Part shown: positions 2,246 through 63,505 of the stretch, one piece after another
How positions within the stretch are numbered: the stretch's first letter is position 1
Layout of the letters: each line of letters opens with the position of its first letter
DNA from: a virus
Taxonomy: Duplodnaviria; Caudoviricetes
Direction: 5' to 3' (one strand)
Length of the DNA: 64,000 nt
Virus record (IMG/VR): IMGVR_UViG_3300020112_002303
Coordinates: 1-64,000 of that record
Translations under genes and position numbers: made by a program
Notes under the pieces: model-generated
What the model was told of the DNA's origin: nothing
Databases searched by the model: none
What the model saw: only the letters and a program-made list of their open reading frames with translations

Positions 2246-3101
2246 ATGTCTAACTTGCTTATGCAAAAAACAGCTTCAAGGTCTTGGAGAAAAATCTCGG
2301 AAATTTAAGTGAAGAGTCGAGGCAAAGGCTAGTTGATTCTAAGATTCTTGATTATAAAAGGGATATGAAAGGGTTAAAGGAAGGTACAGAAGCCATACTT
2401 GGTAAGAATGGAACTAAGCAAATTTCACCCCGAAAAATGAAAAAACACACAACTAAAATATTTATTGATGCAATAAATTCGTCTCCAGAATTAAAGAAAT
2501 CAATAGCTCGTGATTATTCGATACCTCTGTTAAATAGTGAAAACAAAATTGTGTCAAATAGCATTGTAAAAGGGGTAGCAAAAGCGAATGTAAGACAAAG
2601 GATTAATCAATCCGGAGGGTATATATCCTCTAACGACGGAAAATATGTCTCTTTTGGTAAAAGCCCTAAAAAATTGAACAAACATCCTGCAGTGGGATCA
2701 GAATTAAAAGAAATATATAAAAAAATGTTACCATTAGAAAAGCAATATGTCGATAAAGTATTCAGAAGGCATGAGATTGACGAAACAAGAGAGCTTCTTT
2801 CTAAAAAGAAGAGCAATAGAAGGGTAAATATTCTTGGTGTAAGCGCTCCCGCTACTTCAACAAGCTTTGGTCATTATTCCCCAGGGTATTATTTAGGGAA
2901 TCATCAAATGTTGCATCGGCTCCGAAAAATGTGAGAGATTATTTTGATACACTGAGAAGCAAAACATATGAAAAGGATTGGCTTAAAAATTACTCTAATC
3001 ATGATTATGGAAAAAATGGCGTTTTTGATAAGAAAAACAGCAATTACTTATCAAATACTATTTCGCGTGCAAACAGAAATGCTCTAAACAGTAAAACATA
3101 A
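2246..3101 (+). pseudogene. leader-bearing HExxE protein interrupted by two single-base frameshifts
   Basis: GGAGGAG RBS + MSNLLMQKTAS at 2246; one extra A near 2290 joins ORF 2284; one extra G near 2885 extends it to TAA 3101; RRHEIDE motif. Confidence 0.65.
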
Positions 3102-3137: not shown

Positions 3138-4148
3138 ATGTTGGAGTCGTCTTTGGAAAAAATAGCAACAGTAGATAAAGGGGCGAGAAATTATATAATA
3201 GATACCCTTACTAATCGAGATGTTAAGGAAACAAGCTTTCCTAATCAAGCCAAATCAGAACTATTTCGCAACTATAAAGGATGGGAAAAGTCTGACCGGG
3301 AATCTCATAAAAAAGTTTACGAACAAATGAAAAAAACCTTTAATAAAGATAGAGAAGGATATTGTAAATTAGACAGTGATATGAGACGTTATCACGGTAT
3401 GACATATGATATTCCGAGATATAAAAAAGATAATAGTAAAATACGAAAATTTTTAATGATTGAAAGAAAAATTCCTAACCCGGAATGGGAAAAGGCAAAT
3501 AGTAATTATAAAAAACTTTATAACCTTAGGTACAATAAACTTTTTTATGATGCAGATGCTAATGCTTTCGCATTAGAGCAAAAAGGCAAAAAACAAGAAA
3601 AGGAAGCGAACGAAATGTCTGTGTTACTACAAGAAAAACTCGCATATTCGGATGCAAATGTTAACCGCGCAGTACAAATGAATCCGGACGGCACTTATGG
3701 TATGAAAAATAATCTTCGTACCAACTTTAATCATATCAAGCTTGATGTGAAGAATAATACCAATACCACTAAAATCGGAAAAGGCATAAATACCATTAAG
3801 AGTGACGCAACCAATATAAGGAACGCCTTTAAAACAAGCGGAAGTGCCGTAGGAGACGCTTTTAAAAACGGAACATCAAATGTAGTAGGTGCAATCAAAA
3901 ACAAGACAGGCGTAGGTACAGCCATTAAAAACAGTACGTCAAGTGTAGGAAGCGCTATTAAAACCGGCACAGGTACTGTTGGCAACGCAATTAAAGGATT
4001 GAGCAAAGGTTCTAAAATAGGTCTTGGTATTGCGGCCGCAGGTACAGCCGCAGCTATCATAGGAAGTAAGATTAAAAAGAAAAAGGAACAAAATAAAACC
4101 GCCGAAACCTTCGAAGAAATGCTTGAAAAAATGGCAAAAGAACAATAA
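3138..4148 (+). CDS. putative internal-head cargo polyprotein (two modules)
   Basis: MLESSLEKIA leader; internal MSVLLQEKLA at 3615; 11-mer repeats; TM helix + KKKK; ends KTAETFEEMLEKMA. Confidence 0.7.
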   Translation: MLESSLEKIATVDKGARNYIIDTLTNRDVKETSFPNQAKSELFRNYKGWEKSDRESHKKVYEQMKKTFNKDREGYCKLDSDMRRYHGMTYDIPRYKKDNSKIRKFLMIERKIPNPEWEKANSNYKKLYNLRYNKLFYDADANAFALEQKGKKQEKEANEMSVLLQEKLAYSDANVNRAVQMNPDGTYGMKNNLRTNFNHIKLDVKNNTNTTKIGKGINTIKSDATNIRNAFKTSGSAVGDAFKNGTSNVVGAIKNKTGVGTAIKNSTSSVGSAIKTGTGTVGNAIKGLSKGSKIGLGIAAAGTAAAIIGSKIKKKKEQNKTAETFEEMLEKMAKEQ

Positions 4149-9177: not shown

Positions 9178-9648
9178 ATGTCAAATTTACTTATGGAAAA
9201 AATCGCAAAAGACAAGAAAGAGAAAGAAACAGGCCTATCTGATATGCCTCTCGTAAAAGGTCATCCTGAGTTTGGAACAGCAAAAAGCAGAAAAACTTAT
9301 AAAGCCCTACGTACTATTAGCGGCGGGGTAGTAGGCGGTTTCTCAGCACCGGCAGCTCTTGAACTTATTGGAGGAGCGGCTCATGATAAAAAAGGATATA
9401 AATCCAATCCAACAATAAGCACGAAACATAAACTTGTAGGAGCCGGTACAGGCGCACTTATCGGAGCAATAAATGCTGATAGGCAAATAAAAAAGGAAGA
9501 CAATAAAAATATGCTTAAAATGTTTAACGGAAATCAAGAAGCCGTTAATTACGCAAAAGTTCATGGCCTCGAATCTGCAATAAAAAAGTACGGTGACTTC
9601 ACAAAGAAAGCATCTTTCGAAGAAATGCTTGAAAATTACGAAAAATAA
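9178..9648 (+). CDS. putative head cargo protein, Gly-zipper
   Basis: MSNLLMEKIA leader; GGVVGG and GAGTGALIGA helices; KKASFEEMLENYEK tail. Confidence 0.7.
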   Translation: MSNLLMEKIAKDKKEKETGLSDMPLVKGHPEFGTAKSRKTYKALRTISGGVVGGFSAPAALELIGGAAHDKKGYKSNPTISTKHKLVGAGTGALIGAINADRQIKKEDNKNMLKMFNGNQEAVNYAKVHGLESAIKKYGDFTKKASFEEMLENYEK

Positions 9649-9657
9649 TTTTTTATA

Positions 9658-9686
9658 TTGCATTTTTAATGTAATATAGTTATAAT
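9658..9686 (+). promoter_or_regulatory. SigA-type promoter
   Basis: TTGCAT-17-TATAAT. Confidence 0.7.
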
Positions 9687-9748
9687 TAAACAAAAGAACA
9701 AAAGAACCTATTGTTCTTAAAAATAAAAATTAAAAAGGAGTTTTAATT

Positions 9749-10690
9749 ATGTCATATTTATTAGAAGAAAAACTTGACGCAGAGAAAATTGCTCGAGCCG
9801 ATAAGCATGGTTATGACAAGAAGATAGATCATAGCACAGGAGCAAATTTTGATGTATTTGCTCTCCCGGCAAAAGGAAAAAGTGGTGCCGGAATTGGCGC
9901 AAGAGTAAGCGAGGCAAAGAGAGAAGTGCCTAAAAAAGTAAATAGTACAATTGAAGGAACAAAAAAGACTTTTGAAGGCGCAAAAAAGACACTTTCAAAA
10001 TATACCCCTAAAAATTATGTTCGTGATGCCGGTTACGACGCATACAATAAAGCCATGAGAGGTTATACTGAAGGAACCGTTAAATTTGACGATATTGCAA
10101 AAGCACAAAAGAAAGGCAGAGTTGTAGGCGGAATCAAATACGGTCTTGGCGCTGCAGGTACTGCTGCAGCTCTTACAGGTGCAACTGTAGGCGGAATCGC
10201 TCTCGCAAAGCATATTAAGAACAAGAAAAAGAAAGAGGAAGAAAAGTCAGCTTTTGATGTTGTTGATGAATTTTACAACGAAAAGTTAGCGTATGATGAT
10301 GCCAGAGTTAATCGTGCAGTGAAAATAAATAAAGATGGTACATATGCCATGAAGAAAAATCCCAGCACGATACTCAATAATGCAAAGTCTAAAGCAAAAG
10401 ATTATATTGGCAAATCAGGCGACAATGCAATGGCAAAAGCCGTAGAAAATTATGCTGCAAATTCCCCCGATATCGATCTCGGCGAATACTTAAATAAGGC
10501 AAAAGCAAGAGGACAAATGGCAGCAAAAGCTAAATTAGGTCTTGGTGCTGTCGGTACCGCTGCAGCTCTTGCAGGTGCAACCGCAGGTGGAATTGCTCTT
10601 ACGAAGCACATTAAGAACAAGAAAAAGAAAGAGGAAGAAAAGTCCGCTTTCGAAATTGTTGATGAAGCATACGAAGAGATTCTTGGTTAA
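9749..10690 (+). CDS. putative head cargo polyprotein with two TM-polyLys modules
   Basis: MSYLLEEKLDAEKIA; EKSAFDVVDEFYNEKLA linker; EKSAFEIVDEAYEE tail. Confidence 0.75.
   Translation: MSYLLEEKLDAEKIARADKHGYDKKIDHSTGANFDVFALPAKGKSGAGIGARVSEAKREVPKKVNSTIEGTKKTFEGAKKTLSKYTPKNYVRDAGYDAYNKAMRGYTEGTVKFDDIAKAQKKGRVVGGIKYGLGAAGTAAALTGATVGGIALAKHIKNKKKKEEEKSAFDVVDEFYNEKLAYDDARVNRAVKINKDGTYAMKKNPSTILNNAKSKAKDYIGKSGDNAMAKAVENYAANSPDIDLGEYLNKAKARGQMAAKAKLGLGAVGTAAALAGATAGGIALTKHIKNKKKKEEEKSAFEIVDEAYEEILG
10142..10666 (+). repeat. 129-bp imperfect direct repeat (10142-10270, 10538-10666)
   Basis: both copies encode GLGAxGTAAALxGATxGGIALxKHIKNKKKKEEEKSAFxxVDE. Confidence 0.9.
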
Positions 10691-10704
10691 TCGGGAGTGA
10701 TCCT

Positions 10705-11130
10705 ATGATTAACAAAGATCCTTCATCAAAAACATCTATATCAAAAGGTAAGGCGCCAATAGTGCGACCCAAACAAGAAATTGGTGGTATCGAAATGCTA
10801 TGGCCGGGACAAAAACAAGTCAGACCGACTGCAACAAAATCGGCGTTTGAAATTATTGATGATTATTTTGAAAAGAAAGCATCAATAGGTGCTGTAGCAG
10901 GAAAAGTCGGCAAAACAGTTCTTAATGGCGCAAAAACTCTCGGCAGAGATGTTGCAAGCGATTTAAGTAATCCATTTACAATGTTAAATGTAGGTTTAAC
11001 AGTAGCTCCTGCAATTTCAGAAGCAGTTGAAAACAGGAGAAAAGTAAAAGAGATGAGAGAAATACGATCTTCTAAAGCACCACAACAGCCTAAGGTACCA
11101 CAACAACCAAAAACACCTCAAATAAATTAA
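10705..11130 (+). CDS. putative head cargo protein
   Basis: internal KSAFEIIDDYFEKKAS linker followed by amphipathic/hydrophobic helix. Confidence 0.65.
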   Translation: MINKDPSSKTSISKGKAPIVRPKQEIGGIEMLWPGQKQVRPTATKSAFEIIDDYFEKKASIGAVAGKVGKTVLNGAKTLGRDVASDLSNPFTMLNVGLTVAPAISEAVENRRKVKEMREIRSSKAPQQPKVPQQPKTPQIN

Positions 11131-11131
11131 T

Positions 11132-11162
11132 AAAAAACACCGGGCAATGCCCGGTGTTTTTT
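11132..11162. terminator. bidirectional terminator
   Basis: A6-CACCGGGCA-a-TGCCCGGTG-T6 between convergent genes. Confidence 0.9.
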
Positions 11163-12370
11163 CATGTAAGTTCAACGAGATATTTTATTGTACACTGATC
11201 TTCTCTATAAATAATAATTTCATCGTTTCTAAGCATAGACCCTTTATGTGCATGCAAACAGTGCGCCAAAGGGGCTGTCTTTTTTAATTTATCATAATTA
11301 AAATTATAATATTTGGAATCAAACTGATACACATCAAAAGGTTTTCCGTAAGCAACATCATAAAGTCCCATTAAAGAAAAATCGGAATTACCATTAGCCC
11401 AATACGAACCTTTGTGGCTTGTATAGCCGAAACTCTTCTGAGCACTGTTAGCATAATATATACCGTAACCAAACATTTTGCCCGTTATAATAGCATTAGG
11501 TTTAAGTAAAAGTCCTGACGAAGCAATGCTCCACCAATTTTCATTTCTTGAGCCGTGCCATAACATTTTGGTATCCGCTATACTGTTATCTTTTACAAAA
11601 GAATCGAATGCACTTTGAGTTTTAATGTTTGTAACTTTCCAAGAATCCTTATATTTATCAGATAAATGGCCAAGCGATTTTTTAATTTTATCAATATCAT
11701 CATCGTTAGTTTCTTCAAAAGTCAAACCGAACATTTCAAGAATAGTTTTATCGAATACGGTATCGCCGGATTGATTTTCGACAGTGACCTTGTTTTTCAC
11801 CATGCCACGCATAACATCAAGAAGATCTTGTTCACGCTTAAATATTTTAGCAAAATCGTCAGGTGTTTTTGCTAAATAATCAGACACTTTTTTCATAGCC
11901 CTTGGAATAACGCTAAATAATTTAGTTAATGTTTTATTAAAATCATTAACAGAGCTGTTTTTACTTGCAGCAAGAACAATAAGGAGTTTGTCTGCCTCAT
12001 CAATCATTTTCTGTGTAACGGCTTCGGACGAAACGGTATAATTCTTTTTTACCGCATCATTTGCAAGACCAATAAGTCTATCAACTATCTTTGAGATGTT
12101 TTGGTTTTCTATTGGTTTGTATTTATTTTCAGAAGATTCAACCTTTACATCCATTAGGTCTGATTGGTCAGCATAACCCTTTTTAACTTTACTGTTGTAT
12201 ATTCGGCACCAATCGGAGCGAGGATAGGTTTTAGTTTGAAAATTGCTATTACCTATCCTTCCGTATTCAACAGTAAATGTATCGCCTTTTGGAATCATTC
12301 GATAGAACTTATTATTATTTGCATCAGCTGTAATCATTACAAGATATTTTGGACAATAGCCGCTATCCAC
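11162..12370 (-). CDS. poly(ADP-ribose) polymerase (WGR + helical + ART catalytic domains)
   Basis: NNKFY..YGRIG WGR-like; LWHGSR, GKMFGYGIYYANSAQKSFGY, NDEIIIY = H-Y-E triad. Confidence 0.9.
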   Translation of the reverse strand: MDSGYCPKYLVMITADANNNKFYRMIPKGDTFTVEYGRIGNSNFQTKTYPRSDWCRIYNSKVKKGYADQSDLMDVKVESSENKYKPIENQNISKIVDRLIGLANDAVKKNYTVSSEAVTQKMIDEADKLLIVLAASKNSSVNDFNKTLTKLFSVIPRAMKKVSDYLAKTPDDFAKIFKREQDLLDVMRGMVKNKVTVENQSGDTVFDKTILEMFGLTFEETNDDDIDKIKKSLGHLSDKYKDSWKVTNIKTQSAFDSFVKDNSIADTKMLWHGSRNENWWSIASSGLLLKPNAIITGKMFGYGIYYANSAQKSFGYTSHKGSYWANGNSDFSLMGLYDVAYGKPFDVYQFDSKYYNFNYDKLKKTAPLAHCLHAHKGSMLRNDEIIIYREDQCTIKYLVELT

Positions 12371-12848
12371 GATCTAATACACCTGCCTCTTGAAGAACAT
12401 GTTTGTCTTTTTCGAGATAACAGACAACAATTTCTAAATCTTTGCCGATATCGGCAAAAAGTCTGTGTAATTCACAGTCAACAAAACCCCATTTCAATCC
12501 GTCTAAACCGCATCCGATAAGCGGAATGCCGATTTTAGAAATATTATGTTTTATAACATAATCCCTGAATTTTTCTAATGAAGCGGAGAAATTTTCTTTT
12601 GTCGGCTTTTCCCAGCACTTATTTTTTGTGACAAGATTGACGATACCGGCAATAACTGCAATATCTCCGGCTCTTGTATCATCTCTAAATTGGCATCGAA
12701 GAATTAAATGTTCTCTCATATTGAATCTTTTGTTGAATTCTACGGCAATTCCTGCCCCTAACGCACAATCTGCCGAAATACAATGAGCAAGAGTATATTT
12801 ATAGCTCAAATCAAATAAATCTTGTTCTGAATAAATAATACTTAACAT
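12363..12848 (-). CDS. macrodomain ADP-ribosylhydrolase, TARG1/Poa1/DarG-like
   Basis: DLF, AHCISADCALGAGIA, NLVTK, PLIGCGLDGL. Confidence 0.9.
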   Translation of the reverse strand: MLSIIYSEQDLFDLSYKYTLAHCISADCALGAGIAVEFNKRFNMREHLILRCQFRDDTRAGDIAVIAGIVNLVTKNKCWEKPTKENFSASLEKFRDYVIKHNISKIGIPLIGCGLDGLKWGFVDCELHRLFADIGKDLEIVVCYLEKDKHVLQEAGVLDRG

Positions 12849-12854
12849 AAAAAA

Positions 12855-14027
12855 CTACCTCACATAAATTATATTTTTCTTTGCTCTTGTAACGGCCGTA
12901 TATAGCCACCGCATTGTCGTTTCTTTACCGACTATTTTTCTCGGAACATCATCGTAAATAATGACATTATCATATTCACTGCCTTGTGCCTTATGAACAG
13001 TTATAGCGTAACCATAATCAAACAAGCACAATTCCTTATCGAATCTGTCTACATAACTACACTCCTGAAACGGATGTCGGCAAACATAAATAATTTCCTC
13101 GTCATCAGTATATTCCGGAGAAAATAAAATCTTAAACGAATAAGGTTTTTCGATTTCGCAAGGCACAGCATTAGATCTTGCAGTACCGATAGTACCGTTA
13201 ATAAGAGGAAGGCCGCCAATATTAATATCCCAATTATTTTTAGTACAAATAAGCTTATCGCCATAAATCGGATAATCACCCTCAAGACTATTGAGAGCTC
13301 TTATTTTTTCGTTCAGCTCTCTTCTCGTGTCATTTTTGTAGCAAAGAACCTGGTCGGCATTTTTAAAAGAAGAATCTTCACATCTTGTTCCGATATCTAA
13401 CTTTATATTTTTTCCGTATCTTTTATTTGGAACATAGCCGTATTCTAATATATCTCTCGACAAAAGAATAATAGGATTGTCTTTTTCCTGTCTTACTATT
13501 TCGTCTAAATGGGCGTCTGAAGAAGTTAAAAGTTTAGGGTCATCTTCTATTGGCGGCAACTGCATTGGATCTCCGATAAGAAGAATTGGTACGCTGAAAG
13601 ACAACAAATCTTTCATAATCTTTGAGCTAATCATAGAAGCCTCGTCAATAACGATAAGTTTAATATTATTATCAATGCTTGTTACCTTGCTGAAAATCAA
13701 GTCAGCTTTAGATTTACCCTGAAGCTTTTTAGTAGGAATAATCTCAAAAGGATCATCCGCTTCTTGTTCAAGTCGATAAATTAACTTGTGGATAGTTACA
13801 GCAGGTATACCCTTAGAATTCAACACCATTGCCGCCTTACCCGTAAAACTTAGGTATACAGTGTTGTTTCGTATACCTAAGTTTTCTACTATTGCAGGAA
13901 CAATAGTAGTTTTACCTGTTCCTGCAAGTCCGGTAAGAACAAAAATTTGTTTTCTATTTTCATCTTTAAACCAATTCGATATGGCTTCGATTGCTTTTTT
14001 CTGTCCTTCATTATATTCAATTTCCAT
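12855..14027 (-). CDS. SF1B helicase, RecD/Dda-like
   Basis: GLAGTGKT, IDEASM, GDPMQLPP, YAITVHKAQGSEY, LYTAVTRA; start chosen from RBS. Confidence 0.93.
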   Translation of the reverse strand: MEIEYNEGQKKAIEAISNWFKDENRKQIFVLTGLAGTGKTTIVPAIVENLGIRNNTVYLSFTGKAAMVLNSKGIPAVTIHKLIYRLEQEADDPFEIIPTKKLQGKSKADLIFSKVTSIDNNIKLIVIDEASMISSKIMKDLLSFSVPILLIGDPMQLPPIEDDPKLLTSSDAHLDEIVRQEKDNPIILLSRDILEYGYVPNKRYGKNIKLDIGTRCEDSSFKNADQVLCYKNDTRRELNEKIRALNSLEGDYPIYGDKLICTKNNWDINIGGLPLINGTIGTARSNAVPCEIEKPYSFKILFSPEYTDDEEIIYVCRHPFQECSYVDRFDKELCLFDYGYAITVHKAQGSEYDNVIIYDDVPRKIVGKETTMRWLYTAVTRAKKNIIYVR

Positions 14028-14421
14028 TTTCATCCCCCTTTTCAAAGTAAACATATTCATCGTCAAATGCTATTTCGGGCAATTTAACCTTATCTATAAT
14101 ATCAGGTTCATAGAAAAGTTCCATATAAAATTTTTCGTTTTCTTCTGACAAATTAACAAGATCGCCCTTAGAATTAAATTCTGATATTAGAAAATCTCCG
14201 GCTATAATTTCCCCATTAAATATTCTGTTTCCCGGAAGGCCTATTTTTTTAGAGTTCCTATTATAAAACAAAAACAGAGAGTTATTATTTCTTGCCTTAT
14301 TAGTTATTGGTTTTTCGGCAAATTCACCATTAACTTCCTTTTGAAAAAATTCAATAAAAGAAGCAGTATCTTTTATTTCTGGATGTTTACCGGGACTAAC
14401 TTTAATTATCTTCGTAATCAT
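14017..14421 (-). CDS. DUF3846-like protein
   Basis: PGKHP..Q..VNG..GLPGNR..IIAGDF pattern. Confidence 0.6.
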   Translation of the reverse strand: MITKIIKVSPGKHPEIKDTASFIEFFQKEVNGEFAEKPITNKARNNNSLFLFYNRNSKKIGLPGNRIFNGEIIAGDFLISEFNSKGDLVNLSEENEKFYMELFYEPDIIDKVKLPEIAFDDEYVYFEKGDENGN

Positions 14422-22241: not shown

Positions 22242-23636
22242 ATGGGACAAATACCAAGTACTGGAATAGTTAATCGTGCAATGGGGACATTAAATGTCAT
22301 CGGTGAAACAAAAAATGCTATAGCGGCTCCAAAGAAAAAAGAAGAAGAAAAATTGGAGACTTGTAATATGGCAAGAGCTAATAAATATTACAGACAATCG
22401 ATTGCAAGTCAGTCTGAATATAATATGGAGAAGCAAGCAAAAAAAATACAGATAAAAGCTCTCGGAGGAAAAGCATACAGTGCTGCTGTTAGAGGAGCAA
22501 ATTCTTACGACCAAAAAACTTTAAATTATCTTCATGGTACAGGTGCCGGAGATAAAGCAAAGGGAATAGGTATGGCAACTGCGGCAACAGCTATCAATTT
22601 AGTACCTGCCATTCTTACCACTGCCGCCGCAAAGAAGATAGAGAGAAAAAGGTATGAAAAAGAACTCGAAAAAAATCCTAATGCAACAGAAAATAAAGTA
22701 TATCCTTATATTTTAGGTGCAACGGTTGCAGCACCAACAATAGCGTCAATGATTGCTAATAAGTCTTTTGTGGCGCCGTTAAGGGTGACAAAAAATGCTT
22801 TGTTTGATTCAAAAGCCGATATTATTTTAGATTCGCTTGGTGGCACCAGAGATTCTGCAGCAGTTATAAATTCAATTAAAACTGTTAATAAAGGCAGAAA
22901 AGATGCGGTAAATGACATCATCAATGAAGCAAAGAAAGAAAAAAAGAGAGCAGCAATTTCTTTAAGCAAAACTTTAAATAGCGAACATGACCCCGAGAAG
23001 AAAAAAGAGATCGTTAAAAAATTAAAGAGGCTTGGAGAAAACACTGGAAACGTATCAAAGTTTGCCTATTCTTCTTTTGAAGGAGAAGAAAAAGAGGCAG
23101 GAATAGTTGATAATGTAAAAAATACAGCATCAAAGTTTAAACCTGCTAATATTGTAAAATCCGTAAAGAATTTTAAGGTTCCGATTCCTACCGTAAACGG
23201 ACAGAACTTTAAAGACAAAATGAGCAAGAATAAGAGAAGTATAGCGAAAGATATAGTAGTTGGCTCATCGTTAGCTATGCTCCCCGCTGCAATAAAGGGA
23301 TTATCTCGAAGAGATTTGAAAAACGGCTGGAGAATAGACGAGGACTTTGAAGAGCAAAACGAAAAAGAAGCAGCTTTTAAAATTCCAACAAAAAGAGTAG
23401 ATATCTCTGGCGGACTCGCAGACTTTACTACCGGCGCAGCTATAATGTTAGGTTCGAGCATGGTTCCTGCAGCCGTAATGAAAATAACAAAAAGAAATCC
23501 TTATAATGCTTTTGAAAAAATAAAAACAAAAGAGAAAAATCAAAAGTTAATTAATGAACCGGTTGAAGAAAATCCGACAAATACTAATAATAATTTGAAC
23601 GCTAAAAAGGCGGAAATGTTAAAAGAAGCAAAATAA
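22242..23636 (+). CDS. putative internal-head polyprotein with several hydrophobic helices
   Basis: EKQA, KFAYSSFEGEEKEA and EKEA linkers separate basic modules with TM-like helices. Confidence 0.6.
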   Translation: MGQIPSTGIVNRAMGTLNVIGETKNAIAAPKKKEEEKLETCNMARANKYYRQSIASQSEYNMEKQAKKIQIKALGGKAYSAAVRGANSYDQKTLNYLHGTGAGDKAKGIGMATAATAINLVPAILTTAAAKKIERKRYEKELEKNPNATENKVYPYILGATVAAPTIASMIANKSFVAPLRVTKNALFDSKADIILDSLGGTRDSAAVINSIKTVNKGRKDAVNDIINEAKKEKKRAAISLSKTLNSEHDPEKKKEIVKKLKRLGENTGNVSKFAYSSFEGEEKEAGIVDNVKNTASKFKPANIVKSVKNFKVPIPTVNGQNFKDKMSKNKRSIAKDIVVGSSLAMLPAAIKGLSRRDLKNGWRIDEDFEEQNEKEAAFKIPTKRVDISGGLADFTTGAAIMLGSSMVPAAVMKITKRNPYNAFEKIKTKEKNQKLINEPVEENPTNTNNNLNAKKAEMLKEAK

Positions 23637-39723: not shown

Positions 39724-42048
39724 TTGTCATTTTGTAAAACAACTTCTTTTGAATTGAACGGAGATAACACAGAAGTTCTAACAGGCGAATTAAATAAAAC
39801 TGCTTCGTTTTCTTTGCCTGATGGATTCGTGTATGATCCTGAATATCTTTATTTAAAAGTAAGAGCTGTTAGTGGTGGAGAATACTGGGGTTGCAATAAG
39901 AATTACGATTATTTTCCTTGGGAAGAATTAAAAGCTCAAGCCAATACTTTCTTGTCCGCTCATGTATTTAAAAATCATGAAAACAAAAAGATTGAAGATG
40001 CTATCGGCGATATACTTTCAGTTATAGTTAACGATGAAATGAAATGTGTAGAGCTGATAATCAGAATCAGCAAAAGCGTTGCACCATCAATAACTAAAGG
40101 GTTTGAAAAAGGATTCATGACCGATGTTAGTATGGGATGCAGAGTAAAATATTCTGTTTGTTCAATTTGCGGAAACAAAGCAAAAACTAAGGTTGATTTT
40201 TGTGACCACATTAAATACGAACGTGGCCGAATCTATGATGACGGAAGACAAGTTTACGAAATAAATGTTGAGCCAAAATTTCACGATATATCTGCCGTTC
40301 TTAACGGTGCAGAAAAATCGGCAAAAGTATTAGACCTTAAACTTGAAACTTCGGATAATGTTAAAATTGATAGACCTATCACATCTATTAAAGTTGCTTG
40401 TGAGAATCAAAATGCTCTTGAAAAAGTTGCATCAGAAACTCCAATAAAGAGATTTACTTCTCCATTTTATTCTCCCGATATTGAAATGGAACATTTTATA
40501 GACAAGGAAGCACATTTAAATAAAATTTCCGAAATATCAAAGAGATTGGATGGAAAAGTTATTTCCTCATCTATTTCTGAATACAGGGATGATTTAGAAA
40601 AAAGATTGGGTAATATTGTTCCTCAACTTAAAATGCTATATGAAGATTTTCTTGATGAAAGATCCTGTGTTGATATAGGAAGAAAACTTCAGCGAATAGC
40701 CGACGAAAATCATTTAACAGAAAATGCTGTGTTCGGAAAATTCCTCGAATGCGCAGATTATTGTTCGATAGAATTTTCACCGCTTGAAATTTCACTGATA
40801 TTCAAATCTCTTATAGGTAAAAAAGTCAGCGAACAAAATCCTGCTCCTGAAATTCCGCAAAATCTTGATTCCGCGTACTCGGAGAATATTCCGTCAGGCG
40901 TCACCTGCACCAAAGTTCTTCGAGCTATTCCGAGAATGCAAACCTCATTACCCGCACTATCAAATAGTTCAAATCCTGGAACTGCGGCAAAGATTATTAT
41001 AATGAAAAGAATTTCAGGCACGCCGAAAGACGATGGTGTCGACACAGTTCGGAATATTTCTCCGATACTTGATATCCTTCGTCCTCTTATGGAAAGTCGT
41101 AGTATGCAAGCACAGTTCTTAGGGCCTCGTCTTACGAAGATGGCTTCTGAAAAGAGGAAACCAAATTTTGCAAGAGCTTCTAAGCATTTTGCTCCCATTC
41201 TGAAACTCAACAATCCTATATTTAAAACGGCTTCTGATATTGAAGATTTTGTAACAGGATATGCTTGGGCTGCTTACGAAAAAGAAAGAGAAGTAAGAGC
41301 GATGTCAAACAACTTTGACAGTAACGCAGAAAAAATCGCTTGCTTAATGGATGATGAATGCTTATCAAAACAAGCATCAGCTTTTACAAAATCATTAACT
41401 ATTGGTGTTCCTGCCGCATATGCTTATTCTGCTTGGCAAAGAGCAAGAATGAGAAACGGCAAGAAAGTATCGAGTATAAACAGAGCTATTGCAGAGAATC
41501 CTGATGGAACAGCCATGACTCAATTTTTAGCCGTAAACGGCGCCGCTAAATTTTTAAATAAAAATAAAACAGGTCAAGCAATAAAGAGTGGTGCAACCGG
41601 TATCGGTCGTGCGGTAAAAAGCGGAATAACTAACAATAAAATCGTAAAAGGCATTACAAATAAGATTCCAAAAGTTGCATTTGAAAAAAATATTATTGAA
41701 AATTCGTCTTTGGTATTGAATAATTCTGATATTGACGATATAATGATAAAAGAGGGTTATACTATTGACGATGTCAAGGCTATTAAAGCAAGTATTGTTT
41801 TCAACGAACTCAAAAAGGACGATTTAGCTGGAGATGTTTTGAAAAAAGCATCGTTAAATGAGGAAGATGTTAAAAATTACTTGCATTCCGCCAAAGACTT
41901 TGTTAAAATAAACCTTGAGAAAAATGCTCAACTTATATCTGATATGTCCTGCGGTAAATTAGGAGATGGAGATATGTTGGATATTGGAATGTTATCGAAA
42001 CTATACGATATTAAAAAAACATTTTTCAAAAAACCGAAAGGAGAATAA
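39724..42048 (+). CDS. prohead protease (assemblin/HK97-like fold) with long KxA-rich extension
   Basis: N.N.D.F, FKNH, VSMGC, CSICGN..CDH, F.DISAV; upstream of scaffolds and MCP; TTG start after GGAGG. Confidence 0.75.
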   Translation: MSFCKTTSFELNGDNTEVLTGELNKTASFSLPDGFVYDPEYLYLKVRAVSGGEYWGCNKNYDYFPWEELKAQANTFLSAHVFKNHENKKIEDAIGDILSVIVNDEMKCVELIIRISKSVAPSITKGFEKGFMTDVSMGCRVKYSVCSICGNKAKTKVDFCDHIKYERGRIYDDGRQVYEINVEPKFHDISAVLNGAEKSAKVLDLKLETSDNVKIDRPITSIKVACENQNALEKVASETPIKRFTSPFYSPDIEMEHFIDKEAHLNKISEISKRLDGKVISSSISEYRDDLEKRLGNIVPQLKMLYEDFLDERSCVDIGRKLQRIADENHLTENAVFGKFLECADYCSIEFSPLEISLIFKSLIGKKVSEQNPAPEIPQNLDSAYSENIPSGVTCTKVLRAIPRMQTSLPALSNSSNPGTAAKIIIMKRISGTPKDDGVDTVRNISPILDILRPLMESRSMQAQFLGPRLTKMASEKRKPNFARASKHFAPILKLNNPIFKTASDIEDFVTGYAWAAYEKEREVRAMSNNFDSNAEKIACLMDDECLSKQASAFTKSLTIGVPAAYAYSAWQRARMRNGKKVSSINRAIAENPDGTAMTQFLAVNGAAKFLNKNKTGQAIKSGATGIGRAVKSGITNNKIVKGITNKIPKVAFEKNIIENSSLVLNNSDIDDIMIKEGYTIDDVKAIKASIVFNELKKDDLAGDVLKKASLNEEDVKNYLHSAKDFVKINLEKNAQLISDMSCGKLGDGDMLDIGMLSKLYDIKKTFFKKPKGE

Positions 42049-42052
42049 TTTC

Positions 42053-42625
42053 ATGGATGCAAAAAATTCTATGCTCTCTGCATTTGAATCTCTTGGGTTA
42101 GATCCAAACTATTCTAATGTATCAGAGAAAACAGCAGACGAAATCGAAGACGATGTTGAGGTCGTTGACGACAATATCGATCTTGCCGGTTATTTAAAAT
42201 TTGCAGAAAGTCTCTCAGAAGCTGCAGAAGATGACGGCGACGATTCCGATGTTAACGAAGGCGCTGATGATGACAATGATGATGATGTAGTTATCGAAAA
42301 CGCTGACGAAGGCGACGAAAGCGTTGCTGACGAAGGTGCTGACGAAGGTGCTGACGAAGGTGCTGACGAAGGCGAAGGTGCTGATGTTGAGGCTTCGGAA
42401 AGTGATGCCGAGGTTGAAAAGTTTGCTTACGAAGTGATCGAAACAAAGATGGATATGTTAGGTCTTTCTTTGAAAGATTATGTAGAACGTCAAATTCAAA
42501 ATGAAGTTCTTGCTGAAACAATCTCTGTTGATGCTGAGAAAGTTGCTTCTGTTACTCAAGTGTCTCCGTATAAAGTTGCGGACGATATGATTGATGCTTT
42601 GATTTCAAAATTGTCACAGTCTTAA
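42053..42625 (+). CDS. acidic scaffold-like protein
   Basis: D/E-rich; EKTA, KFA, EKFA, EKVAS sites. Confidence 0.65.
   Translation: MDAKNSMLSAFESLGLDPNYSNVSEKTADEIEDDVEVVDDNIDLAGYLKFAESLSEAAEDDGDDSDVNEGADDDNDDDVVIENADEGDESVADEGADEGADEGADEGEGADVEASESDAEVEKFAYEVIETKMDMLGLSLKDYVERQIQNEVLAETISVDAEKVASVTQVSPYKVADDMIDALISKLSQS
42326..42373 (+). repeat. 4 x 12-bp tandem repeat (ADEG)
   Basis: GCTGACGAAGG(T/C) x4. Confidence 0.9.
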
Positions 42626-44232: not shown

Positions 44233-44263
44233 ATAATATTTATTAGAAAGGAACGTGTCCAAT

Positions 44264-45328
44264 ATGGCAAATACAAGAATTAAGACAGCTTCAGAGACTG
44301 TCAGCGCAGATTACAATATCGCAAGAATGCTTGAAGAGCCCGATGGTTTTAACAAGATCGCTCTTGAAAAGCTTCCCCCATTCATTCGTGAACTTCGTGA
44401 TTATGAGGCTTTCGGTAGAAAGATTCTTATGACTCACAATGTTTCTTCTGAAGACCTTCACCTCATTGATGGTGAACCTTATGTTTACTATCCGAAGGAT
44501 CAAAATGCTCATGCGGCATTCTTCGGTGATGATGCAGAGACTCCTCGTTACCAAGTTGAAGGCGACGGCGTTAATGTTGGTATTATGACCATCATTTCCG
44601 ACAACCACACCATTCATCTTAAGAGATTGATGGTTCAAAAGTATCAATATCTTGAGCGTGTTCGTGAGCTTTCTGCTCAATCTATGGTTAAGGCTGAAGA
44701 CCTTAAGATTATTGAACTTACCGAGCGTTTGCTCATGGGTAACGGCGGCGACGGTGCTACCGGCCACTCAGCTCCTGCTAATGCTGGCCAAATCGCAACA
44801 ACTACATCTACCGTACTCCAAAAGAATGATCTTATCGGTCTTATGCAAAAGATTTCTCAGAACGACATCCCTGTTGGTGCTTTCGTAATGAACCAAGCTA
44901 CTATCCAAGACACTCTTAAGTGGGGCTTTGGTACTACCGGTTCTGATATCGACCAGCTCACACAGAGAGAGATGCTCGAAACCGGCGTTAAGTATAAGTT
45001 CTGGAATATCCCGATGGTTACATCTCGTATTATCCCAAGAACTCTCGTATACTGCTATGCTGACAAGGAATTTGTTGGCCGTATGCCAATCCTTAAGGAC
45101 TTGACCGTTGAACTCACCAATACTTCTACTCGTCTTGAAAAGGGTTTGTTTATGTATGAGTTCGTAGGTATGTACCTTGCTTCTCAAAAGGCAGTTGCAA
45201 AACTTATCATCGGCTTTACTGACGGCGACAAGAAGATTCACCTTACTAGCGATGCTGAAGGTGTTTATGCTCGTGAAATGGAAATTATCAAAGACATCAA
45301 GGGTTACGGCTCTCGCGAAGGTCGCTAA
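44264..45328 (+). CDS. major capsid protein (HK97 fold)
   Basis: about 354 aa, strongly biased codon usage, LRDYEAFGRK, KAEDLKII, FVMN, IPMVTSRIIP; followed by terminator. Confidence 0.85.
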   Translation: MANTRIKTASETVSADYNIARMLEEPDGFNKIALEKLPPFIRELRDYEAFGRKILMTHNVSSEDLHLIDGEPYVYYPKDQNAHAAFFGDDAETPRYQVEGDGVNVGIMTIISDNHTIHLKRLMVQKYQYLERVRELSAQSMVKAEDLKIIELTERLLMGNGGDGATGHSAPANAGQIATTTSTVLQKNDLIGLMQKISQNDIPVGAFVMNQATIQDTLKWGFGTTGSDIDQLTQREMLETGVKYKFWNIPMVTSRIIPRTLVYCYADKEFVGRMPILKDLTVELTNTSTRLEKGLFMYEFVGMYLASQKAVAKLIIGFTDGDKKIHLTSDAEGVYAREMEIIKDIKGYGSREGR

Positions 45329-51053: not shown

Positions 51054-51497
51054 ATGTCAAACAAAACAGAAAACAGATCAGAAAGCAAAATCATCGCATT
51101 AGATAATATCTTTGATGATTTTATCAAACCCGGTCAAATCCAAGAAGAAAAAGAAATCGTTCCCGGATTTAAGATTAAGGTTAAACCTCTTAATCTTCAA
51201 GACCTTGCATTATCGGACCTTGTAAATGGCGCAGATATGATGCCGAACGATGTTCTCGTTAAGGTTAAGGCAGCAAAAGTTTTATCTATGGCAATATTGG
51301 CCGTTAATGATAAACTTATAGAGTCGGATGACGAAAACGAGGAATCAAAACTTAGAGAAGCACTATACAAGAATCTTATGAAACTTCCTGCAATTGTAGT
51401 TCAAAAATCGTATGAATTTTATTTAGATATATCTAAAAAGAGAGACGAGCTGTTTATTAATAGCAAAGAGGTAAGCGAAACGCTCGAAAATTTTTAG
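51054..51497 (+). CDS. tail assembly chaperone (G-like)
   Basis: between tube and TMP; ends at slippery site. Confidence 0.75.
   Translation: MSNKTENRSESKIIALDNIFDDFIKPGQIQEEKEIVPGFKIKVKPLNLQDLALSDLVNGADMMPNDVLVKVKAAKVLSMAILAVNDKLIESDDENEESKLREALYKNLMKLPAIVVQKSYEFYLDISKKRDELFINSKEVSETLENF
51488..51494 (+). other. programmed -1 frameshift heptamer A AAT TTT
   Basis: GAA AAT TTT TAG; -1 frame is open into ORF 51527-51919. Confidence 0.8.
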
Positions 51498-51919
51498 GTA
51501 CCTCTTCCGGAGAAATAATCTCAACTGTGCTTTATTATAAAAACGGGGTTATAACTGAAGACCGCTTTCAGAAAATGACTCCGTTTCAGTGGTTATTTCA
51601 CTATCTGGAAATTATGAAACATAAAAAGGATAATATTAAAAATATATTAGAGCCAACGGTAGAAGAAATCAGACAGCTTTTAATTTTTGTTGGCTCCTGC
51701 TCTGACGAAGAAAGAGCAAGAGCTCTTGTAGAGGAATTGTATAAAAAGAAAGAAAATAAACTTAGCGAGACCGACGAAGAGCAAATTACGGAGCTTAAGA
51801 AAGCACCGAGGGAGCTTGAAGTAAAAATTAGTGAAGGAATTGAAACAATAAGAAAAGAAGATTCCGATAAAATACTAAAAAAGTTTATCCCTAAATTAGA
51901 ATATTACGAAAAGAAGTGA
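51494..51919 (+). CDS. tail chaperone frameshift extension (GT-like)
   Basis: -1 frame LGTSSGEIISTVLYY...MTPFQWLFHY. Confidence 0.7.
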   Translation, partial: LGTSSGEIISTVLYYKNGVITEDRFQKMTPFQWLFHYLEIMKHKKDNIKNILEPTVEEIRQLLIFVGSCSDEERARALVEELYKKKENKLSETDEEQITELKKAPRELEVKISEGIETIRKEDSDKILKKFIPKLEYYEKK

Positions 51920-54900
51920 TTTCATTGAGGCAAGACGGCGCCATGAACTATAACGACGAATCTTTACAGGAACTCGTCTCATTATCAAGAGAACAACTTA
52001 ATATTATGCAACAGCTTAATGTTAAATCTAACCCTGGAGGTATTTCAAGGATTGGTTCCGGGCAAGGTATTGCTGAGTATTCTGATATTCCGAGAGATGA
52101 AACGGAAGGACTGTTCAGTAGACTTTCAAAACAAGCCTCGGAAATGGGTAAAGATTTAAAGGAGAAAATGAGTAGGGCTCAGCAAGTTTCTCCCGAAGCA
52201 ACAAGTTATAGAAGCATGGATAAAAGTTCGTCCGGCGCATCCACGATAATGAGTGTTGTAGGAAATCTCGGAGCAAACGCATTAGGTGCTGCATCAAAAA
52301 GTCTTTTAGGTATGACAGTGATTCCTGCGGCTATAGGTGCTTATGTTGGATACGGAGTAAATCAGTTTGGTAATGTCAACGATATAGCTAAATATTCTCA
52401 AAGGTTTTCTACTAATTATATAGACTTTACAGAATCAAACAATAACAGAGGTAGCTCAGGATTTAGCGTAAGAGAGTCTTATGAGGTTGGTAGAGGAATA
52501 TATAATCTCGCCCCCAAAATGCGTATGAGCGTAGATACAATGAAAGATTTGACTATGCAATATTCCGAAAGCGGATTGCTTCGTAATGCATCAGATACTT
52601 CTTCTGTTATATCCAAAATAGAAGAACTTACAACTCAAGCAAAACAAATGGGAATTCTTCTTAATGAAATGAATGAAAACGGCAAAGTTGTAGCCCAAAT
52701 GGCTCAACTTTATAAAATGGGTGTTGGTACATCAAATTCTACAACTATCGCAGCAAGAACTAATCTTGCTAGCGGATTTCTCGGCGTTAATGCATCAACT
52801 CTCATGGACGCTACCGTACAAAATACAGCAAATATAGTAAGTGGTACAGGCATTTCCGCAACAAGTGTCGCAGGCGATATTTCTTCTGCAAACCTTGTTG
52901 GCGGAATGATGTATTCTCAGCTTGACAAATCAGGCACAATGACTTATGCTCAACGCCAAGCGTACAACTATATGAATAATATAGGTAAAGAAAATGTTGG
53001 CACGGAAATAACACAGTTAACGCAAGGTATTCTTAGTAGCAGTTTTACTGCTCCATTTCTTGCTTCTATTTACAAGTATGATGCATCTTCGGGACAAATG
53101 GTGATTGACCCATCCGCATTTAGTCAAGTTAGCAGTATGAGCAGTCTTACCCAAATGGGTCAATTAGGAAGCTCTAACTTGCAGGCTGCAGGTGTAACTA
53201 ATCCGAGCGCCGTTACAGAATTTATGAGCACAGCAGGAACTCGTGCAATGAATGATTTAGGAACAGTAGATAGAATCTCTCTTATTAAATCATTAGTTCA
53301 AAAAATAAAAAATCAATCTGGCGGAAGGCTTTCTGATATACAGATACTTCAAAGCTATTTTGGATTTTCATCAGAACAAGCAGCCCTAATGTCTACTTAT
53401 TTAAGTATTGATACTAATACGCTCGTTTCAGCTCAAGCCGTAACAAATACGCAAGAAAGCATGTCTGAAACGAGAGCAGCATTATATGGCGGATTAGGAG
53501 GATCGGTAAGTTCTTTTTTCGGTTCTATAGGTCAAGGTATAGCATCGCCTTTCGTTGCTATCGGATCAGGACTATCTTCATTAGGGTCCGATATAGGAAA
53601 AATAGGCGAGACTATTTGGTACGGAGACCAAATGTATGCAAATGATTTTGTTACTAATACGGATTTCTTTAATGTGGATCAAGACGAAAAAACAAAAAGA
53701 ATTAAAGCATGGAACGAACAAACAGCCAACACAAAATCACTTTATGACAATTTGTCCAGCAAACAAAAAGCTGCAATTAAAGGTTTAGGTTTCAGTCATA
53801 TAGGTGAAGATTTTGTTAATGCAGATGAAGTAGAATATGACAAATATGGTAAAATCAAAATAAGTTCTATGAATTTTGATGTTCTTGAAGACGGATATTC
53901 TTCAAAAGACATCGAAAACATGATAAAGCTCAAAAATCTCGGTATTACATCATCAAAAGAAATTACTCAATTATTGTACGAAGGGGAAAAATTCGGATTA
54001 AGTGACGATTCATATGAAGATATGGTAAAATGGATAAGGAATCCAGATGTTGATACAGTAAAAGTCATGAAATATCTTAATGATGCGGACACGGAAACAC
54101 TGCAAAGTATTTATAAGGAAAAAACTAATATTGAAGACCAGCAAGCCGATTTAGTTAAAAAAGCCATCGTCAGTCAAAAAATAAATGATAACCCTAATAA
54201 TAGTGCATGGGGTGGATTAAAACAATGGAGTGCCGAAAATAAAAAAGGAACTCGTTTTCTTGGTGATGCTCTTCTTGTAACTGGTGCTGCGCAAACAGCA
54301 TATACGATAGGACTTGCAGGAACAGCGGCCGCAGCCAGCACAACAGCATTGACCGTTGCGGGTTCTTCAACCGCACTGACCGTTGCAGGCACAGCCGCAG
54401 CAGGAGGAATGGCGGCTGCAGGATTATCTGCTGCGGCAACCGGCGTAGGAATTGGTGTTGGTGTAGCATTATTGATAGGTGCAGCATTACTTTATGCGTC
54501 ATCTATGGGTAATGAAGACGCAGAATTTCTACAAAAGATGAAAGAAAAAGTAGACAACGGAGAAACCTTAACTGAAGCAGAGACTAAAAAAGTGAATCGC
54601 CTTCTCGATGAGCATAACAAGGCCACAGCCAAAAATATTCTTAATACTTTTGAAAGTGGTAAAGGAATAACCGATGAGAACGGCAATTATTTAAAAACAA
54701 GCAAGAACAGAGAAACACAGCAAGGATTGAACTTGATTAATAATAATGTTGTTGATGAAGTTACCGGTCTTTCTGCAAAAGATATTCTTGAAAACACTGC
54801 TACTGCTAAAAAATATTTTGCAGAACATACTAACCAAACTGCCGAGGATGCAGTACAAAGAATGACTCTTAAATACAGCACGGTTTCAAAGAACGTTCTT

Positions 54901-63178: not shown

Positions 63179-63505
63179 ATGTCGCAATTGCTTATGGAAA
63201 AGATGGCAATGATAAGAAATACTGTTGAAAGTTCAAATATCCGCTCTATTGGATATAGTCCAATTAGCAGAAAAATGGAAATTGAATTTAAAGGCGGAAG
63301 CATTTATCAATACAAGGGTGCATCAGCAAATGTGTATAAAAACATTATGGATGCGGAGTCGAAGGGTAAATATTTTCATAAAAATATCAGATATAAGTTG
63401 CCATATAAACAAGTATTAAATAAAGATGGTGAAAAAGTTAAGAGCGATTGGAAAGTATTAGATAATCCTAAATCTAAAAAGAAAACAGATGAAGACAAAT
63501 CATGA
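63179..63505 (+). CDS. KTSC-domain protein with MSQLLMEKMA leader
   Basis: VESSNIRSIGY, IEFKGGSIYQY, AESKGKYFHKNIR. Confidence 0.9.
   Translation: MSQLLMEKMAMIRNTVESSNIRSIGYSPISRKMEIEFKGGSIYQYKGASANVYKNIMDAESKGKYFHKNIRYKLPYKQVLNKDGEKVKSDWKVLDNPKSKKKTDEDKS

Follow-up and report, generated by a model that had tools for sequence, protein, structure and literature searches.

Locus and gene content

The DNA analyzed here (the window) is the first 64 kb of the 102,257-base IMG/VR virus record IMGVR_UViG_3300020112_002303, for which the CheckV completeness estimate is 67%. The phage is a myovirus of low GC content (about 35%), and the window carries genes for the tail sheath, an HK97-type major capsid protein (44255-45328), terminase large subunit, portal, a single-chain beta-beta' RNA polymerase, and a lysis cassette. 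Distant kin of the major capsid protein are the capsid proteins of Bacillus phage G and of Bixzunavirus mycobacteriophages. The subject of the analysis was a set of basic proteins encoded by open reading frames (ORFs) 3138, 9178, 9749, and 10705, named after their first position, which contain short acidic peptides bounded by the tripeptide Lys-x-Ala (K-x-A). Such elements inside a protein or at its C terminus are called linkers, and a related N-terminal peptide, found on several of these and on other proteins, is called the leader; proteins with a leader are termed tagged. The features are listed in Table 1. Positions beyond the window are given as genome positions of the whole record.

Table 1. 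Tagged genes, linkers, prohead protease, and capsid cutting site in the window (arrows, predicted cuts; aa, amino acids)
Feature	Position	Strand	Description
Tagged gene, leader MSNLLMQKTA, frameshifted	2246..2934	+	Paralogue of tagged ORF at genome 79290-79736 (-)
Two-module tagged pre-protein, 336 aa (ORF 3138)	3138..4148	+	Leader MLESSLEKIA, 147-aa basic module, internal linker
ORF 3138, second half	3138..4148	+	164-aa basic module with 11-residue repeats, Gly/Ala stretch, KKKK, C-terminal linker
Internal linker of ORF 3138, aa 155-169, KEA↓NEMSVLLQEKLA↓Y	3600..3644	+	Module-swap breakpoint of P0003
C-terminal element of ORF 3138, aa 320-333, KTA↓ETFEEMLEKMA↓	4095..4136	+	Only KEQ follows
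Tagged pre-protein, 156 aa (ORF 9178)	9178..9648	+	Leader MSNLLMEKIA, 135-aa basic module, C-terminal tail KKA↓SFEEMLENYEK
C-terminal acidic tail after K-K-A, ORF 9178 aa 143-156	9604..9645	+	
Two-module tagged pre-protein, 313 aa (ORF 9749)	9749..10690	+	EKIA-ending leader to aa 15, 153-aa module, linker, 119-aa module, acidic tail
Linker of ORF 9749, aa 166-181, KSA↓FDVVDEFYNEKLA↓Y	10244..10291	+	
C-terminal element of ORF 9749, aa 298-313, KSA↓FEIVDEAYEEILG	10640..10687	+	
Two-module pre-protein without canonical leader, 141 aa (ORF 10705)	10705..11130	+	47-aa basic module, KSA↓FEIIDDYFEKKA↓, 82-aa basic module
Linker of ORF 10705, aa 45-59, KSA↓FEIIDDYFEKKA↓S	10837..10881	+	
Prohead protease fused to long scaffold-like C-terminal part, 796 aa	39658..42048	+	Weak PHROG match, head maturation protease
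Protease domain, aa 25-262	39730..40443	+	AlphaFold model, predicted local distance difference test (pLDDT) 86
K-T-A-S, major capsid protein residues 10-13	44282..44293	+	Predicted maturation cut after Ala12
KTSC-domain protein, canonical leader MSQLLMEKMA	63179..63505	+	Tag on non-membrane cargo too

Linkers separate and terminate basic modules

All five K-x-A/acidic elements listed in a sequence-only reading of this DNA were found where it had placed them, and ORF 3138 contained a further, internal one that was absent from its list. A strict regular expression run over six frames of the window matched only in ORFs 3138, 9178, 9749 (twice), and 10705; a looser one gave four more, unrelated matches in ORFs 21585 and 22242. 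When a doublet was defined as two K-x-A sites 6 to 13 residues apart around a net acidic peptide, the 102-kb genome contained 15 acidic doublets versus 3.6 ± 1.8 after shuffling of the proteins. Between the elements, module length ranges from 47 to 164 aa, the isoelectric point (pI) from 9.6 to 10.4, and the net charge from +6 to +17, and the peptides that would be excised carry −1 to −5. The description of the elements as separating or ending basic modules, mostly with a Gly/Ala-rich hydrophobic stretch, therefore held. In ORF 3138 and both halves of ORF 9749, this stretch is followed by KKKK, a short Glu run, and K-x-A, and each module of ORF 9749 ends with the stretch and then KNKKKKEEEKSA. 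The module of ORF 9178, preceded by the Shine-Dalgarno (SD) sequence AAGGAG, has two Gly-rich hydrophobic stretches. The acidic peptides had been called helices; AlphaFold, run on the single sequence of ORF 9749, did draw helices over residues 168-190 and 300-312, but this is a prediction at a pLDDT of only 38, unusable as a model.

The C-terminal element of ORF 3138 and the acidic tail of ORF 9178 agree at 82% of DNA positions (repeat D3), and an element of the same ETFEEMLEKMA type is internal in a paralogue at genome 74092-75018. Acidic C-terminal tails after K-x-A were also tried as a possible third general signal, and this candidate was dropped, since such tails showed no genome-wide enrichment. 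The tail of ORF 9178 is thus more likely a vestige than a separate signal, and it and the tail of ORF 3138 probably represent decayed linkers.

A common leader on about 14 proteins

In a whole-genome scan, the peptide MS[QNK]LLMEK-x-A opened nine ORFs and looser versions opened five more, giving about 14 unrelated proteins with an N-terminal leader of the general form MS-x-LLMEK-x-A. Two of the nine canonical copies lie inside the window (ORFs 9178 and 63179), together with the Gln variant at 2246; the looser leaders include those of ORF 3138, ORF 9749, a sigma-factor-like protein, and an SNF2-family helicase. One short terminal peptide, in its canonical and looser forms, is thereby common to KTSC, SNF2 helicase, sigma-like, glycine-zipper-like, and other proteins, and its occurrence on the helicase, sigma-like, and KTSC proteins argues that the tag marks cargo in general and is no signal for membranes. 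The leader variants of the sigma-factor-like protein (genome 65187-66065, +) and the helicase (genome 79736-81313, -) both end in EKIA, and these two proteins may be delivered by the capsid alongside the single-chain RNA polymerase.

Every leader has a good SD site. Most differences among the nine copies are at synonymous codon positions, which indicates conservation at the protein level and selection on the peptide. A degenerate DNA pattern of the canonical leader matched no further IMG/VR contig, so the exact leader appears to be specific to this phage. A Sec or lipoprotein signal peptide was considered and rejected, as the leader is without a hydrophobic core, too short, and too acidic.

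Linkers and leaders have the same C-terminal half, namely, two hydrophobic residues, x, and E-K-x-A. Judged by this likeness, the linkers are all versions of the N-terminal leader placed internally or at the C terminus, and the two form one system, not separate ones.

The reading frame is interrupted at two tagged loci. In the gene at 2246-2934, the leader and 11 further residues are followed by a stop, and the remainder (ORF 2284-2934) lies in another frame past an A5 run; this is a one-base homopolymer frameshift, be it an assembly error, a pseudogene, or slippage. At genome 77785-78418, a 56-aa tagged ORF overlaps a 164-aa ORF without leader or ribosome-binding site, which has a Gly/Ala stretch plus KKKK as in ORF 9749. 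An A7 run marks the junction of the two frames, so a single gene interrupted by a homopolymer frameshift is the probable explanation.

K-x-A as candidate code of the prohead protease

The K-x-A statistics of the window were computed over 70 ORFs. The pattern K.AS occurred 31 times versus 9.4 expected (z 7.3), and EK.A 32 times versus 8.7 expected (z 8.0). Per 100 residues, nine head-module genes had 1.62 K.A sites, tagged genes 1.18, and all other genes 0.42. Besides the capsid protein site at residues 10 to 13, sites were present in the N-terminal extension of the portal, both scaffold-like proteins, and the protease fusion, and every tag ends in this same motif that is concentrated in the capsid N terminus, portal, scaffolds, and protease. 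Only head and tagged genes showed a common site context, in which P5 is hydrophobic, P4 is Glu, P1' is Ser, and P2' to P5' are acidic; the head-site consensus is [L/A/M]-E-K-x-A↓S-E-x-E-D. From this distribution, we infer that K-x-A is the cutting site of the head protease.

The protease fusion, with a scaffold-like region of about 540 aa and homologues that start near residue 23, has 11 motif matches, of which eight are K-x-A↓S/F and three more are E-K-x-A. In a library clustered at 50% identity, 3782 homologues were retrieved at E ≤ 0.001, and 231 records of cultured phages list the fusion under a hypothetical or structural label. Over 61 homologues of full length, the count of K.AS was 294 versus 25.9 expected. 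K-x-A was found in the aligned homologues at query residues ~49 (60/60), ~257 (60/60), and ~573 (59/60), and the first two of these sites bracket the conserved N-terminal protease domain. A very acidic scaffold-like protein of 219 aa (41966-42625) adjoins the protease gene.

No PDB sequence was matched by the protease in either sequence or profile searches, and fold comparison alone succeeded. In the AlphaFold model of the domain, built with a 54-sequence alignment, the two bracketing K-x-A sites fall in flanks of lower confidence; His83 and Ser134 (domain numbering) are invariant. The best Foldseek matches were herpesvirus proteases. With VIA-align, the top match was T4 gp21 (5jbl; Z 11.0, root-mean-square deviation 2.7 A over 128 residues), followed by herpesvirus assemblins (Z 8-10.6), clearly above unrelated folds. 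Taken together, the fold match and the head-protein motif on the flanks of the domain indicate that the fusion is a prohead protease of the gp21/assemblin fold that carries a scaffold-like tail. A complex prediction for the protease domain and residues 150-199 of ORF 9749, run without controls, scored 0.06, a value that weighs neither for nor against contact. Between the catalytic Ser and the last strands, the domain has a near-invariant Cys/His cluster (C-x-x-C ... C-x-H) that looks like a zinc-binding insertion.

The sequence-only reading had taken the linker to be excisable. This part of it is now well backed by K-x-A at both linker ends and by a motif that saturates the head proteins, flanks the protease, and is conserved in relatives; the support is indirect.

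Another head-module product, the 464-aa protein of ORF 22242-23636 encoded between terminase and portal, contains four motif sites along with three or four hydrophobic stretches rich in Gly, Ala, and Met, an architecture like that of the small cargo modules.

Gene fusion, duplication, and module exchange

The ORF at genome 76408-77163 contains an intact second leader, MSQLLMEKVA, internally and in frame, with no stop before it and with its own SD sequence, which encodes K-K-G-G. It is evidently two tagged genes fused in frame and the clearest intermediate; since the second leader keeps its SD, a fusion protein and a separately initiated product are both possible. In the window, the internal linker of ORF 3138 has an internal Met with AAGGAAG upstream and DNA similarity to the start of ORF 9749 (repeat D8), and it looks like a former gene start. 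ORF 9749 includes an in-frame internal duplication of 146 nucleotides (nt) with 84% identity and a spacing of 396 nt. The retained internal leader, SD, and Met, together with this duplication, indicate that polyproteins arose by in-frame fusion and, in ORF 9749, also by duplication.

P0003, a 470-aa protein of a strain variant from another assembly, matches ORF 3138 at 99% identity over the stretch that runs from ANEMSVLLQEKLA to the C terminus. Its upstream part is unrelated to anything in the genome and begins with the leader of the gene at 2246, and K-R-A directly ahead of the linker is retained. As P0003 is near-identical from the linker onward and unrelated before it, the linker is a real module boundary and a recombination joint. 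The idea of polyproteins was thus supported by the fused ORF outside the window with its internal leader and ribosome-binding site, by the P0003 swap, and by a three-module protein in a relative (see below). The same cases, with the duplication in ORF 9749, show that modules are able to exist as separate genes.

The modules fall into paralogous families, and the second module of ORF 3138 starts like the residues past the linker of ORF 9749 (YDDARVNRAV..DGTY). In both proteins, the module past the linker (3645-3700 and 10292-10350) begins VNRAV..(N/K)(P/K)DGT. This start resembles a conserved segment of the protease fusion, NR..AENP (aa ~600-612, 41470-41664; tblastn E 0.08), and the fusion has ~11-residue repeats like those of ORF 3138. 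The cargo modules may have their origin in the scaffold part of the protease gene.

This history could also be accommodated if the elements were never cut and were amphipathic helices for oligomerization or for binding of host or phage partners, or remains of gene starts, which may persist because cargo genes exchange cassettes across such short patches of homology. P0003 recombined exactly at the linker, the leaders share up to 30 nt of near-identical DNA, and internal linkers retain SD-like sequences and Met codons. However, such uncut elements would leave unexplained the K-x-A at the capsid N terminus, in the portal and scaffolds, and on both flanks of the protease domain (60/60 homologues), as well as the K-x-A ahead of the linker in both unrelated upstream modules, and the synonymous differences among leaders point to selection on the peptide. 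We regard this explanation as highly improbable.

Conservation of the design in relatives

A search of 5.8 billion protein clusters found no homologue of ORF 9749 besides itself and, for ORF 3138, only itself, one strain variant, and one weak repeat match. No homologues of the cargo ORFs were found by tblastn-type searches of five complete relatives and the relative G001, and a scan of IMG/VR with the back-translated ORF 3138 pattern gave no match. PHROGs and Pfam had no match for ORFs 3138, 9178, 9749, and 10705, and ESM Atlas returned only low-score neighbors, none of them named.

The design was compared in G001 (capsid protein 59% identical) and in the complete genomes G002 (166,758 bases) and G003 (152,620 bases; protease ~60% identical). 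All three showed the same K-x-A enrichment and clustering in head genes, with the capsid N termini IKTA↓A, IKTA↓A, and IKTA↓S, respectively, and with 19, 33, and 34 acidic doublets versus 2.4, 5.5, and 4.4 expected. G002 homologues of the SRAWRK family and of the sigma-like protein have leaders ending in K-x-A. An 882-aa G002 protein (ORF 51272-53920) has two or three linkers between larger modules, and its only Pfam match, HAD, is sub-threshold. The G003 ORF 145767-146912 encodes a three-module protein with a leader ending in MYEEMYKVA, a Gly-rich stretch, a basic run, and KAA↓YEMYEEMYKVA↓, after which the pattern is repeated; by its arrangement, this is the architecture of ORF 9749. Absence of the linker in homologues had been set beforehand as an observation that would speak against excisable linkers. 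The linker type is kept in the relatives, in the doublets and in the three-module protein.

Among cultured phages, Salmonella phage Arash has a protease domain 40% identical to that of the window and K-x-A clustering in gp220, gp222, gp223, gp225, and the capsid protein gp226, and its virion proteome has already been measured (PMC10585845). The RNA polymerase beta-like subunit of Arash, gp206 (L111 3285-7862), starts with MPKSA↓S, a minimal K-x-A leader. K.A was the top enriched spaced pair in gp19 and gp21 of phage G and was enriched ~2-fold in gp90 of mycobacteriophage Alice; the capsid N termini of these two phages had no clear K-x-A, so that the code is supported there only partly.

In the 101 doublet-enclosed acidic peptides, P5 was hydrophobic in 78 and P4 was Glu in 48. 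The leader consensus differed per genome, for example, MDK[I/V]AYYED-x-IYK-x-A, with the K-x-A ending constant. Both results bear on the question of whether the acidic peptide, if cut, is an address at all. It could instead extend the recognition site or, as a charge-masking propeptide, keep the basic modules soluble and off DNA and membranes until maturation, with head entry occurring otherwise, for example, by electrostatic binding to the acidic scaffold-like protein whose gene adjoins that of the protease. The hydrophobic P5 and Glu P4 are common to ordinary head sites and leaders, so the tag may be just the extended specificity of the protease, and masking would suit the opposite charges of modules (+5 to +19) and excised peptides (−1 to −5). 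However, the acidic peptides are far too short to neutralize modules of +10 to +17. Moreover, nine leaders are near-identical over 10 residues in one genome, whereas the consensus differs per relative; a genome-specific leader with a constant K-x-A looks like co-evolution with a genome-specific receptor and not with the protease. We therefore consider it unlikely that the peptides carry no address.

Properties of the predicted mature modules

The sequence-only reading had presented the modules as membrane-active peptides. This part is weakly supported: the Gly/Ala stretch followed by KKKK is present, but in a 19-residue Kyte-Doolittle window, the hydrophobic maxima were 1.16 to 1.58, below the usual transmembrane threshold of 1.6, and glycine-zipper Pfam matches were seen on paralogues only, below cut-off (25.2 versus 27 bits and 23.8 versus 28.9). 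ORFs 9178, 9749, and 10705 had no glycine-zipper Pfam match (PF13436, PF13441, and PF05433). The spacing G-x-x-x-G/A occurs in the Gly/Ala stretches of ORFs 9178 and 9749 and of paralogues. An 11-residue periodicity was detected in ORF 3138 (z 5.0), and 11-residue repeats are also present in its paralogue; such repeats are typical of amphipathic helices that bind lipid surfaces.

The strong positive charge would suit a role in DNA binding or in an inner body just as well. The modules might be DNA-condensing internal proteins or building blocks of an inner body and not membrane-active, with poly-Lys binding DNA and the Gly/Ala stretches self-associating within the capsid, like the T4 internal proteins or the phiKZ/SPN3US inner-body and ejection proteins. 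The pI of 9.6 to 10.4 of every predicted mature module, the sub-threshold Gly/Ala stretches, and the paralogous module families, as with inner-body proteins, speak for this, and abundant cleaved ejection proteins are known in SPN3US (PMC10052503). A Gly/Ala stretch followed by KKKK, in contrast, resembles a membrane anchor with a positive-inside flank, and the glycine-zipper matches on paralogues, although sub-threshold, and the 11-residue repeats of ORF 3138 and its paralogue point the same way. We see the DNA-condensing role as a serious possibility that we would not yet favor. Membrane insertion or binding after ejection, DNA condensation, and an inner-body scaffold thus stand as candidate roles of the modules after cutting.

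Directly after the loci at 9178-11130, a leftward operon (11162-14066, -) encodes a PARP-like protein (PHROG 'polymerase' match, E 2e-54), a macrodomain-like ORF, and a helicase; the proteins of this operon are without K-x-A sites.

Proposed maturation of tagged head cargo

The motif, its clustering and conservation, the protease fold, and the history of fusion and shuffling can be read directly from the genomes and models compared here. In our judgment, the K-x-A/acidic peptide/K-x-A elements are probably excisable address or propeptide segments within head-cargo polyproteins. In the proposed sequence of events, about 14 strongly basic pre-proteins would be made late, each opening with an amphipathic, acidic-to-neutral leader of 10 to 15 residues that ends in E-K-x-A. 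Some tagged genes would have fused in frame, whereby the downstream leader became an internal linker and the C-terminal K-x-A of the upstream module became the first cut site. Leaders and linkers would carry the pre-proteins into the prohead core, with the scaffold or the protease-scaffold fusion as candidate receptor. The gp21/assemblin-fold protease would then cut after the Ala of K-x-A, with the same cut trimming the capsid protein, portal, scaffolds, and the protease itself. Acidic peptides of 10 to 13 residues would be freed, and mature basic modules (47 to 164 aa) would remain with the DNA.

Several points weigh against this proposal. Cleavage, packaging, ejection, and module function are all inferred. 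The K.A excess in helical scaffolds rich in Glu, Lys, and Ala could partly reflect helix composition, and the enrichment statistics of the homologues are inflated by shared ancestry, yet many sites are at non-conserved positions. The three C-terminal elements may be decaying remnants and not working signals. Finally, the cargo proteins have no detectable homologues outside near-identical strains, and it is the design that is conserved, not the sequence.

Comparison with known systems and implications

Taken as a whole, the computational evidence suggests protease-processed, tagged head cargo, a known kind of system in altered form. The T4 capsid targeting sequence (CTS) on IPI-III and Alt is removed by gp21, as summarized in later papers (Mullaney and Black 1996, cited in PMC10052503; PMC9026906). 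As in the T4 CTS, a short N-terminal peptide is common to unrelated proteins and ends in the head-protease motif, here a predicted one, at which the capsid protein and scaffolds would be trimmed as well; the cargo is likewise basic, and the protease fold is the same (5jbl, Z 11.0). Unlike in T4, the motif is K-x-A↓ and not L/I-x-E↓, the tag is also internal and joins modules, the tagged genes number about 14, and the protease is fused to the ~540-aa scaffold-like region. Neither PHROG nor Pfam gave homology of the cargo ORFs to the T4 CTS or internal proteins; lacking homology and using a different motif, the system is an analogue of the T4 system and not a family member.

In phiKZ, 201phi2-1, and SPN3US, ejection and inner-body proteins are processed by gp175/gp245 at the motif A-x-E (PMC10052503, PMC5694885). 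The likeness to phiKZ and SPN3US lies in paralogous, presumably head-internal proteins and in the predicted multi-site cutting, processing of portal and protease, and piecewise removal of propeptides; the motif differs, and there is no detectable cargo homology. SPN3US propeptides are mostly long (111 to 254 residues) and N-terminal, whereas here units of 10 to 15 residues recur between modules. The maturation and release sites of herpesvirus assemblins are (V/L/I)-x-A↓S. Shared with assemblins are Ala at P1, frequent Ser at P1', the fold (Z 8-10.6), and a putatively self-releasing protease in frame with a scaffold part. Unlike in assemblins, Lys at P3 is obligatory and a phage with cargo tags is involved, and the protease is not a sequence relative.

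Polyvalent proteins are multi-effector polypeptides of late genes that are predicted to be packaged and injected, some of them processed, for example, P1 DdrB (Iyer et al. 2017, PMC5512222). Several modules in one polypeptide and a late-gene setting are common to both. Polyvalent proteins have recognizable enzymatic domains and often their own zincin-like peptidase (MPTase); ORFs 3138, 9178, 9749, and 10705 had no Pfam enzymatic or peptidase domain, and separation of their modules would rely on the prohead protease and repeated address-like linkers. What is added here is the identity of linkers and leaders, the history of fusion, duplication, and swapping, the doublet statistics, the conserved polyprotein design, the protease fold, and a cultured test case.

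A wider and more tentative reading, which we hold to be possible but rather doubtful, is that a large, hitherto unannotated family of tailed phages uses one Lys-x-Ala code both for head maturation and for loading and release of injected cargo, the cargo genes being exchangeable cassettes with genome-specific address peptides. The family would comprise the phages with the 3782 protease-fusion homologues and Salmonella phage Arash, with phage G and the Bixzunavirus mycobacteriophages as more distant members. By fusion, the cassettes would become true polyproteins, whose addresses double as joints for swapping injected effectors, and some effectors would be soluble-to-membrane peptides (Gly/Ala plus poly-Lys) acting on the host membrane at entry.

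The code is directly testable, because virion mass-spectrometry data exist for the cultured relative. If it is true, a leader ending in K-x-A and linkers flanked by K-x-A would be a readable code for capsid cargo identity and cut positions across a group of large phages, a function would be assigned to the widespread protease-scaffold fusion, and a ready-made tag would be at hand for loading foreign proteins into the capsids of these phages. It would also mean that tailed phages can encode head cargo as polyproteins of swappable cassettes, an arrangement familiar from RNA viruses of which the papers located gave no description for phage internal proteins.

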